Position numbers: made by a program. A DNA stretch of 64,000 bases from Escherichia coli (GTDB lineage Bacteria; Pseudomonadota; Gammaproteobacteria; Enterobacterales; Enterobacteriaceae), in the NCBI RefSeq assembly GCF_030013595.1, contig NZ_CP122769.1. One strand, written 5' to 3'. Each line of letters starts with the position of its first letter. Positions within the stretch are counted from its first letter, which is position 1. This document shows, piece by piece, positions 29,901 to 32,900 of the stretch.

Positions 29901-32900
29901 TAAATATTATCCAATAGGGTTTCATACACCTGGCTTCTGAAAGCAAGGTTCAAGGAGCTTCAGGGGGAAATCAGATTGTTGTCGACCCAGTACTTGTGCA
30001 AACCTACCACCCAATTCCTGGAAATGGACGAAAGTTCATGCGCCAGTTCACGACAGCATTCAGGCGTAAAAATACGTATGGGTCCTGAAGTACCGATATC
30101 AACAGACATGATAAACTCCAGAATGTTGCCATGGCATAGGTTGTTTCTCAGCCTGACAATTTCTGCTTCAGGTGTTCTCCCGGCTGCTACCTTAACCAAC
30201 ATATCCTGCTCGGCTGGAAATGAAAGTAATTCTACCGGCACCCCTTCCTGCTTGGCCTTTCTCAGTAAGGCATTACTCATTACGGAGATACCCTCCAAGT
30301 CCACCAGCTCAGGAGCTGCATGCTGATCGTTAACTGTTGGTTTCAGCATCAGCGACTTCAACGTAACCATGAGTGATGTTTCAATCCCGTTCAGGAAGCT
30401 CGTACAGGCCGGTATCCATAGTTCGTGATGCAACGCCTCGGTTGCTTGTTTAAAGAACCAGTCAATCACGGGGACAGTGTGATAATCATAATAGTGATTT
30501 ATCTCGCTGAATCTTGACATATAAGCATCGTACTCAGCCTGGTCTTCAGGAGATAAAAAATTTGGTGGGAGGGGCATCAGAATCCTTTCATCCTAGCTTG
30601 TATACCTTCTTCGTAGGCCAGCTCGCCATTATCGGTAAAAGATGGTTTTTGGTGTTTGTGACAAAGCTTAATTTTTCGTCAGGCTCGATAGCGTTACCGG
30701 AGAGATTTGATCTTTTCTCTGTAACTCGCAATACTGTTTATACATACAGTATGAGAATTCGAGTGTAGCTATGTCTGTTATCCTTGAGCACATTAGCAAC
30801 AAGCCTTACGAAATGGCACCTTTTTTCAGTGATTTACTGAGCTGTGGAGTGATGAGTCCGTGCGCCGGGCATGAAGATAATGAATTAAATTTGCATGAAT
30901 ATGTAGTCCGTAACCGCCCCTCAACCTTCTTTGTCAGGGCGGCGGGCCTCAGTATGATCAATGCCGGTATCAATGATGGCGCTATTCTGGTTGTGGATCG
31001 GTCTTTAACGGCACGACACGGCTCTATCGTCGTTGCGCTGGTGGATGGAGAGTTCACGGTAAAGATCTTACACACGTATCCTGAGCTGCTTTTGATGCCT
31101 TCTAATCCAGCCTATAAGCCGATACGTGTAAATCCCGAATCCCTTGAGATATGGGGCGTCGTCACCTTTGCACTGAATCAGTTTAGCCATGTACATGCAC
31201 GTTGATATTAACGGGGCCTATGCGGCATTTGAGTGTGCGATGGATCCCAAGCTGGCAAAAAAGCCGCTCATCATAGCCAGCAATAACGATTCGTCCGTCA
31301 TTGCAATGAATAAACTGGCTAAAAGCGTTGGTATTAAGCGTGGGACCCCAATTTTTAAGTGCAGGGATTTGATTCAGCAACACCAGATCGAAGTCCGGAG
31401 CTCTAACTTTACTTTGTATGAAGACTACTCAAATCGCTTCCATGAAACGCTGGAAAGCTTCGCGCCTCAATCGAGTCGATATAGCATAGATGAAAATTTC
31501 ATGTTATTGAAAAACATGAACAAGATAATAGATTATGAAGATTACGGCCGGTTGATCAGAAGTACACTTCTTCATAATCTGTCCCTTACCTGTGGTGTGG
31601 GGTGTTCAAGCACCAAAACCCTGGCTAAATTATGCACCTATGCGAGCAAACGATGGGCAGCTACAGGCGGGGTTGTAGTTTTGACTGATCAGGCCAGGAT
31701 CAGGAAGCTCCTGGGCCTTATCAGTACCAGAGAAATATGGGGTATTGGTCAAAAGATCAGTGAACGCCTGTCGGCTTTCGGGATCATCACTGCCGGTGAT
31801 TTTTATAATAGCGACGTTCGCTTTTTACGTAAAAGCTTTGGCGTTGAAATCGAGCGTACCTGGCGGGAACTGCATGGCGAACCATGTTTCCGGCTGCATG
31901 AATCCCCTCCTGTCCGGCAACAGATTATCGTTTCCAGAAGTTTTGGTCAGCGCCTTAATGAGATAGGCAAGCTACATGAGGCAGTTTCATTTTTTACCGC
32001 CCGGGCGGCAGAGCAGCTGCGCAAGGATGGCTCGTGGACCCGTCAAATCACAGTCTTCATTCAGAGCAGCAATTATGCGCAAGGTGAAAACCGCTACAGC
32101 AATTGTGGTATCGAGCCGCTTACCGCTACACAGGACACCCGCGATCTGGTTGATGCAGCCATGACCATCCTGAACCGCATTTACAAACCCGGGATAGCGT
32201 ATGCGAAAGCTGGGGTAATGCTCTCCGCTATGACTGACGGCACAGAGCAACTCAGCCTGTTTGATGAGCGCCCGGCCAGGCCTGGCAGTCAGGCACTGAT
32301 GAAAGTTATGGACCGGTTCAATAAAGAAAAGCGCGGAGCTCTGTTTTTGCTGGGGGAAGGCATTCAACAGGATTTTCGTATGAAACAGGCCATGCTATCA
32401 CCGAGATATACGACCCGCTGGGATGAATTACTCGTTGTAAAAGCGTAGCGGCCATGACCGGCATGGCCGTACTCATCAAAAGTGAAAGTAACTTTAGGCC
32501 CCGCGAGCTTTTTCGATTGCGCCCTGCAAAGTTGCTGCGTCCATAGCCCCGGGGATAAATGTGGTAGTCGCCGCATTCGGCTTTTTCATATTCATAATGA
32601 TGAAGCCGGGTGTGCCGGTGATCCCAAGCGCTTCGCCCAGCTGCATGTTGCCGGAGATCACGTTTTCATATCGGTTTTTTTCCCTGTCAGAAAACGTGCT
32701 GTTAAACCCTGACTTATCCACCACAGTATTAAAGTCGCTGAGTTCGAATTTGCGTTGAGAGGTCATGAAGGTATGAGCCACAGCCATCAGGTTGTTGTGG
32801 TATTTACGATAGGCTTCAGCACCGAAATTCTGATAGACGTGCAGACCCGTAGCGGCCCCCATGGCAGATACAGGTTTTGAACCGGCAAAAATCGGGAATT

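Follow-up and report, generated by a model that had tools for sequence, protein, structure and literature searches.

The gene pair at positions 30771–32448 of the window, by which we mean the whole 64-kb stretch of DNA analysed here, is very likely an SOS-controlled polymerase V operon of the umuDC/mucAB type that belongs to the backbone of an IncHI2 plasmid. The two genes are identified by their families and alignments, their functional motifs are intact, a LexA box conserved among relatives lies ahead of them, and the pair is part of the plasmid backbone. The locus itself is already known: it is annotated in databases and named in papers, and it is canonical on every sequence test. The features on which this description is built are as follows (window coordinates, strand, feature).

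30706–30715, + strand: conserved promoter block TTTGATCTTT with the −35-like TTGATC (30707–30712); invariant in six IncHI-clade loci, putative promoter role
30730–30735, + strand: putative −10-like element AATACT, with a 17-nt gap to TTGATC and sharing bases with the left arm of the LexA box; relatives have GATACT
30732–30751, no strand assigned: LexA (SOS) box TACTGTTTATACATACAGTA, 2 mismatches of 20 to the palindromic consensus
30761–30765, + strand: probable ribosome-binding site GAGTG, separated from the ATG by 5 nt; CGAGTGT is kept between IncHI2 and IncHI1
30771–31205, + strand: umuD/mucA-like gene, S24 self-cleaving polymerase V subunit by family; 144 aa, ATG start, PF00717, NF007621; WP_000111290.1 in identical plasmids
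30843–30848, + strand: codons of Cys25-Gly26, where RecA*-stimulated self-cleavage is predicted, aligned with Cys24-Gly25 of UmuD and Ala-Gly of MucA
30951–30953, + strand: codon of the catalytic nucleophile Ser61 (UmuD Ser60), a residue shared by all 126 aligned family members
31062–31064, + strand: codon of the general base Lys98 (UmuD Lys97), likewise shared by all 126 aligned family members
31189–32448, + strand: umuC/mucB-like gene, Y-family polymerase catalytic subunit; 419 aa, ATG start, IMS + IMS_C + DUF4113, NF002955; WP_042634445.1
32445–32472, no strand assigned: G+C-rich hairpin with an eight-pair GC-rich stem, where the umuC-like and dsbA-like genes converge

The gene for the D subunit precedes that for the C subunit on the same strand, and positions 31189–31205 are common to both. 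A preliminary description of this DNA had reported an S24 (UmuD-like) gene overlapping a Y-family (UmuC-like) gene by 17 nt, and both reading frames were indeed recovered at the coordinates it gave. In at least one IncHI2 record, the PGAP annotation places the start of the polymerase at Met3 (window 31195), which would shorten the overlap to 11 nt, but Met1 is favoured when the protein is aligned with UmuC, MucB, and ImpB. No clear Shine–Dalgarno sequence was found ahead of the polymerase gene. The arrangement as a whole, a D gene followed by a C gene with a LexA box at the promoter, is that of umuDC-type operons.

The UmuD-like protein contains a Peptidase_S24 domain (Pfam PF00717) spanning residues 21–131 of 144 (E = 2e-24). 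It scored 129.8 against the NCBIfam model for the autoproteolytic subunit of polymerase V (NF007621, cut-off 110) and 59.6 against the LexA model, which is under the cut-off of 110.95. The protein thus consists of the LexA-like S24 catalytic domain without the N-terminal DNA-binding domain. Its best match among solved structures is full-length UmuD (8gmt_B, E = 1.3e-31), with residues 16–134 aligned to residues 15–134. In the structure of UmuD′ (1umu), the cleaved product, the N-terminus is the residue that aligns with Gly26 of the window protein.

The cleavage site was located in a six-member alignment of D subunits, comprising the window protein, E. coli UmuD, MucA (IncN), an ImpA-type protein (IncI1), the IncHI1 ortholog, and a Citrobacter plasmid protein. 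Cys25-Gly26 of the window protein (LLSC/GVMSP) pairs with Cys24-Gly25 of UmuD (LVQC/GFPSP) and with the Ala-Gly bonds of MucA and ImpA, and Ser61 and Lys98 are invariant in all six UmuD-type proteins. In the wider family (126 aligned sequences), the glycine of the scissile bond is invariant in the 124 sequences that are ungapped there; the P1 residue of these is Ala in 109 and Cys in 15. The window protein therefore has both a Cys-Gly bond at the conserved position of the N-terminal arm and the Ser/Lys dyad, and it is predicted from this alignment to cleave itself between Cys25 and Gly26.

The preliminary description had proposed that the segment CAGHEDNELNL departs from the usual cleavage-site context and that activation by self-cleavage may therefore be altered. 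This segment corresponds to residues 31–41, and its CAG (residues 31–33) aligns past the cleavage site of UmuD; the bond lies six residues upstream, so the ground given for altered activation was a mislocation of the site. As the cleavage context, CAGHEDNELNL is rejected by alignment to UmuD, UmuD′, MucA, ImpA, and 120 homologues. The alignment to UmuD and MucA that had been recommended for finding an Ala-Gly or Cys-Gly site gave the Cys-Gly at 25–26. A real deviation is found immediately after the bond: P2′–P3′ is Val-Met in the window protein, whereas it is Phe-Pro in 112 of 126 family members. Val-Met occurs in 7 sequences, all of them from the IncHI clade. One relative that is 69% identical (P0007) has an intermediate Phe-Ala at these positions, and the corresponding peptide CGFASP also occurs in the six-frame translation of another locus (L010, 67%).

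The polymerase comprises the domains IMS (residues 5–150), IMS_C (243–357), and DUF4113 (368–417) in Pfam. It matches the NCBIfam UmuC model (NF002955) end to end, residues 1–418 to 1–422, with a score of 464.7 against a cut-off of 431, while its scores with all Pol IV models are far under their cut-offs. Hence both proteins of the operon exceed the curated NCBI cut-offs for polymerase V. Among approximately 125 homologues, Asp6, Asn8, Asp101, and Glu102 are invariant, and the steric gate Tyr11 is present (relatives have Tyr in 119 cases and Phe in 5). The clamp motif QLSLF (residues 354–358) aligns with QLNLF of UmuC, and its Q, L, and F are kept in all 125 ungapped sequences. The protein therefore has a Y-family/UmuC domain, the catalytic acids with the steric gate, and a QLxLF clamp motif. 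Loss of the Ser/Lys dyad or of polymerase motifs, which was considered for both subunits, is rejected, as S61/K98, D6/D101/E102, Y11, and QLSLF are all present.

Upstream of the operon, the LexA box TACTGTTTATACATACAGTA ends 19 nt ahead of the ATG. No other site in the 64 kb comes within three mismatches of the consensus, and none appeared in 100 shuffles. A LexA box lies at this place in IncHI1 plasmids too (18 nt ahead of the start codon), and also in relatives of 67–72% identity. Accordingly, the LexA box that had been suggested as a thing to look for upstream of 30771 does exist, at 30732–30751, and is conserved in relatives; a lack of SOS control was considered and rejected on the same two observations. 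When the upstream regions of six IncHI-clade loci were compared, TTTGATCTTT was invariant, the following spacer of 16–17 nt had diverged, and ATACTG was again invariant, followed by CAGT. This pattern suggests that TTGATC, the 17-nt spacer, and (A/G)ATACT form the promoter, with the LexA box lying over the −10 element and the start site. A scan for consensus promoters and terminators gave nothing specific at the operon ends; such a promoter would go unflagged because only 8 of its 12 positions match the consensus. At the other end of the operon, the hairpin at 32445–32472 folds better than shuffled sequences (z = −2.6 on the + strand and −2.4 on the − strand). It may be a terminator shared by the two convergent genes, a role that is uncertain because the + strand has no T-tract there, and the terminator scan gave no match at this position.

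By analogy with characterized polymerase V systems, the following course would be expected, from repression through self-cleavage and assembly of the complex to mutagenic synthesis. In undamaged cells, LexA of the host would keep the operon off by occupying the SOS box over the −10 element and the likely start site. Upon DNA damage, RecA filaments would form and LexA would cleave itself, after which the two overlapping genes would be transcribed and translated together. The entry of the plasmid into a recipient as single-stranded DNA in conjugation would probably also trigger RecA filaments and LexA cleavage. On the RecA filament, the UmuD-like protein would cut itself at Cys25-Gly26 by means of Ser61 and Lys98, and the shortened form, as a dimer, would join the 419-residue polymerase. 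Bound to the beta clamp through QLSLF, the polymerase would then bypass lesions with low fidelity, providing damage tolerance at a mutational cost.

It is quite unlikely that the operon, while intact, is weakly active or nearly silent in its native plasmid and has little effect on the mutation rate. Such a state might be caused by slow or altered self-cleavage, in view of Val-Met at P2′–P3′, or by a polymerase of higher fidelity, in view of Ala10, and both of these substitutions are peculiar to the IncHI clade. Self-cleaving S24 proteins vary in the residues that follow the scissile bond, with AG-EP in LexA and AG-MF in lambda cI; because these proteins tolerate other residues at this position, Val-Met is not counted against cleavage. 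Ala10 lies beside the steric gate, and position 10 is occupied by Phe in 97, Met in 13 (MucB type), and Ala in 13 of 124 aligned sequences, Ala being found mostly in proteins 67–100% identical to the window polymerase. The position is functionally sensitive, since replacing Phe10 of E. coli UmuC by Leu (F10L) makes the enzyme more selective for the sugar and more accurate, and lowers spontaneous mutagenesis approximately 17-fold (PMC3401427). However, MucB, a very active mutator, is also without Phe at position 10 and has Met instead, so Ala10 is regarded as a lead and not as a finding.

Two reports on related elements point in the same direction as a weakly active operon. The related rumAB of R391 is described as poorly mutagenic in its native element owing to element-encoded suppression (PMC8460599), and mucA and mucB of R27 are listed among the genes that showed no induction at the permissive temperature (PMC7366339). 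Against this, the genes, the catalytic residues, and the LexA box are conserved in IncHI1, in IncHI2, and in relatives of 67–72% identity, which indicates selection for function. An SOS-controlled polymerase V remains our preferred reading of the operon. It is possible, if unlikely, that the IncHI clade of polymerase V is functionally distinct, Val-Met affecting the rate or signal of activation and Ala10 affecting fidelity and ribonucleotide discrimination. If this were true, the polymerase V encoded by approximately 1000 sequenced IncHI resistance plasmids would differ from umuDC and mucAB in its mutagenic properties. The two substitutions pose a small, testable question for specialists in polymerase V.

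The replicon from which the window was taken is a plasmid of the IncHI2 group (IncHI2A typing). Window positions 20000–34000 are 100% identical over 14 kb to the Salmonella plasmid NZ_CP117034, in which umuD and umuC are annotated and blaTEM-1, mcr-1.1, and pap2 lie just upstream of both. In the window, blaTEM-1 is at 23125–23985 and mcr-1.1 is at 24225–25850. The profile matches, the IncHI2A typing, and these gene positions bear out the earlier view of a plasmid-borne umuDC-like operon on a plasmid that carries mcr-1 and blaTEM. The 2.3-kb operon region is 100% identical to that of many plasmids, about 210–300 kb in size, from Salmonella, E. coli, and Klebsiella, and the plasmid records with this region that were examined typed as IncHI2A/MOBH/MPF_F. 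At 95% identity or more, the operon is found in 945 PLSDB plasmids, annotated as umuD/umuC; 934 of the 945 are conjugative, and the plasmids are about 200–300 kb in size. A gene encoding a TraG N-terminal domain, part of the transfer region, adjoins the operon.

The surroundings of the operon are shared well beyond IncHI2. An IncHI1B plasmid carries an operon whose D and C proteins are 81% and 84% identical to those of the window, with the same neighbours, namely a divergent gene for a hypothetical protein of about 205 aa upstream and convergent DsbA-family and lipoprotein genes downstream. On contigs with polymerases of 67–72% identity, the gene pair is likewise followed by the DsbA gene and a 203-aa gene. 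By this synteny, the operon is an old module of the IncHI backbone and not cargo. Arrival of the operon together with the mcr-1/blaTEM module is rejected, since the operon is syntenic in IncHI1 and in distant IncHI-like contigs that do not have those genes. The resistance genes lie approximately 4 kb upstream in an inserted module of their own that is flanked by IS1, and the closeness of this module to the operon reflects, given the synteny in IncHI1 and distant relatives, the insertion of resistance genes near an old backbone gene. The relevance to mcr-1 and blaTEM that the preliminary description had attached to the operon is thus incidental.

Among the matches listed, plasmid polymerases fall into bands of identity to the window protein, with 933 records at 95% or more, 212 at 80–90% (the one record examined in this band is IncHI1B), and the others below 60%. 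These bands set the IncHI proteins apart, at the level of sequence, as a branch of their own within the polymerase V family. In the literature, mucAB is the name of this locus in the IncHI backbone, both in R478 (IncHI2) and in R27 (PMC5955447, PMC6206278, PMC7366339), and the plasmid umuC has served as a landmark bordering the multidrug-resistance region in an evolution study (PMC9599605). The searched literature contained annotation-level mentions of IncHI mucAB and no experimental test of it. As for the neighbouring hypothetical genes, PADLOC gave no matches for 29960–30577, 29454–29810, 28403–29203, and 33410–34021, a Pfam scan of 29960–30577, 29454–29810, and 33410–34021 gave zero matches, and an NCBIfam scan of 29960–30577, the sole neighbour scanned in this way, also gave zero matches; no tie of these genes to the operon was seen in the three scans.

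It is highly improbable that the main role of the operon lies in plasmid biology and not in host mutagenesis, for example in completing the transferred strand or tolerating damage in it, or through an uncleaved UmuD-like protein that acts as a checkpoint slowing replication. Induction of the SOS response by the entry of conjugative single-stranded DNA is established, and conjugative plasmids of many Inc groups often carry polymerase V operons, there being at least 5000 matching plasmid records, of which 4398 among the matches listed are conjugative. The present operon also adjoins the transfer region through the TraG N-terminal-domain gene (PMC9599605), but no dedicated regulator ties it to transfer, and nothing in the sequence separates a plasmid role from ordinary translesion synthesis; one role does not preclude the other. 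Under the preferred reading, that of an SOS-controlled polymerase V of the IncHI2 backbone, hosts of widespread multidrug-resistance plasmids would gain a further error-prone polymerase that is induced by the SOS response. This polymerase could add to stress-induced mutation, such as that under fluoroquinolones.

The operon was compared with known members of the family, both chromosomal and plasmid-borne. E. coli umuDC resembles it in gene order, in a LexA box that has 2 mismatches and lies 19 nt ahead of the start codon (K-12, extracted in the same manner), in the Cys-Gly bond, in the Ser/Lys dyad, in D6/Y11/D101/E102, and in the QLxLF clamp motif. The identities of UmuD and UmuC to the window proteins are 41% and 48%, respectively. 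Yet, the umuDC genes overlap by 1 nt, compared with 17 nt in the window operon, which is plasmid-borne; furthermore, umuDC has Phe-Pro after the bond and Phe10, whereas the window operon has Val-Met and Ala10.

IncI1 plasmids carry impCAB, another UmuD/UmuC pair with a LexA box ahead of it, whose proteins are 37% and 43% identical to those of the window. It differs in having the DinI-like impC upstream, with the LexA box before impC, a gene that has no counterpart at the window operon. The mucAB operon of the IncN plasmids R46/pKM101 (polymerase RI) is a plasmid-borne ortholog whose genes likewise overlap (by 13 nt), and position 10 of its polymerase, being Met, is also non-Phe. Its LexA box lies 15 nt before the start codon. 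MucA and MucB are each 46% identical to their window counterparts, but the MucA bond is Ala-Gly and not Cys-Gly, and the backbone is IncN, MOBF.

The closest system is the mucAB of IncHI plasmids (R478 of IncHI2 and R27 of IncHI1), which is the same locus as the window operon. The polymerase of the IncHI2 plasmid pME-1a is 98.6% identical to that of the window. The genes of the IncHI1 operon also overlap by 17 nt, and its LexA box is found at the corresponding position; this box, TACTGGTTAAATATCCAGTA, has 4 mismatches to the consensus in comparison with 2 in the window box, and otherwise nothing of substance differs between the two.

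The IncHI1B ortholog of the operon (L004) carries a LexA box, TACTGGTTAAATATCCAGTA, in which both half-sites are altered in mirror-image fashion, from CTGT to CTGG and from ACAG to CCAG. In L008, a 72%-identical relative, the change affects one half-site only. These substitutions may weaken LexA binding and raise basal expression in IncHI1. The junction of the umuD-like and polymerase genes also differs among relatives. In L008 and L009, both 72% identical, the last base of the umuD-like gene is 2999 and the polymerase gene begins only at 3001, leaving no overlap; therefore, the 17-nt overlap is specific to the IncHI1/IncHI2 branch. 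The features at and upstream of the umuD-like gene are as follows:

L004:2545–2564, LexA box of the IncHI1B ortholog
L008:2583–3001 and L009:2580–3001, umuD-like/polymerase junction without overlap
Window 29960–30577, minus strand, ORF of 205 aa in divergent orientation to the umuD-like gene
L010:1763–2431, SRAP-domain gene (PF02586) preceding the umuD-like gene

The divergent 205-aa ORF is kept in both IncHI2 and IncHI1, with a length of 615–618 nt, and shares with the umuD-like gene a 193-nt intergenic region containing the LexA box. It had no Pfam, NCBIfam or PADLOC matches. In the 67%-identical relative L010, the umuD-like gene is immediately preceded by an SRAP-domain gene in the same orientation. 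The umuD-like ORF of L010 was called as 77 aa only, a truncation by the gene caller, and its full-length frame, including CGFASP, is still readable.

The resistance module occupies window positions 22225–26644 in the following order:

22225–22922, minus strand, IS1 (insAB), first element
23125–23985, blaTEM-1
24225–25850, mcr-1.1
25898–26644, pap2, last element

Just 239 nt of AT-rich sequence separate blaTEM-1 from mcr-1, and no ISApl1/IS30-type ORF is present in this gap. Coverage of 80% or more of window 20000–34000 is seen in only two PLSDB plasmid records, so this mcr-1 context is uncommon. Elsewhere, window 1–3147 and 8231–15767 hold large ORFs that resemble metal-resistance genes in appearance. 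Among their products, a protein of 1048 aa looks similar to the CusA/SilA efflux pump, and a putative two-component system (228 and 466 aa) comes after it. A sil/cop region has been reported on IncHI2 plasmids (PMC5955447), and the putative metal-resistance ORFs would fit such a region.

Downstream, a convergent DsbA-family gene directly follows the umuC-like gene in all IncHI-clade loci examined:

Window 32494–33303, minus strand, DsbA-family gene convergent with the umuC-like gene
L002:3001–3531, counterpart in the DsbA/dsbB comparison

In E. coli K-12, the convergent gene after umuC is dsbB; this resemblance to the IncHI-clade arrangement is probably a coincidence.
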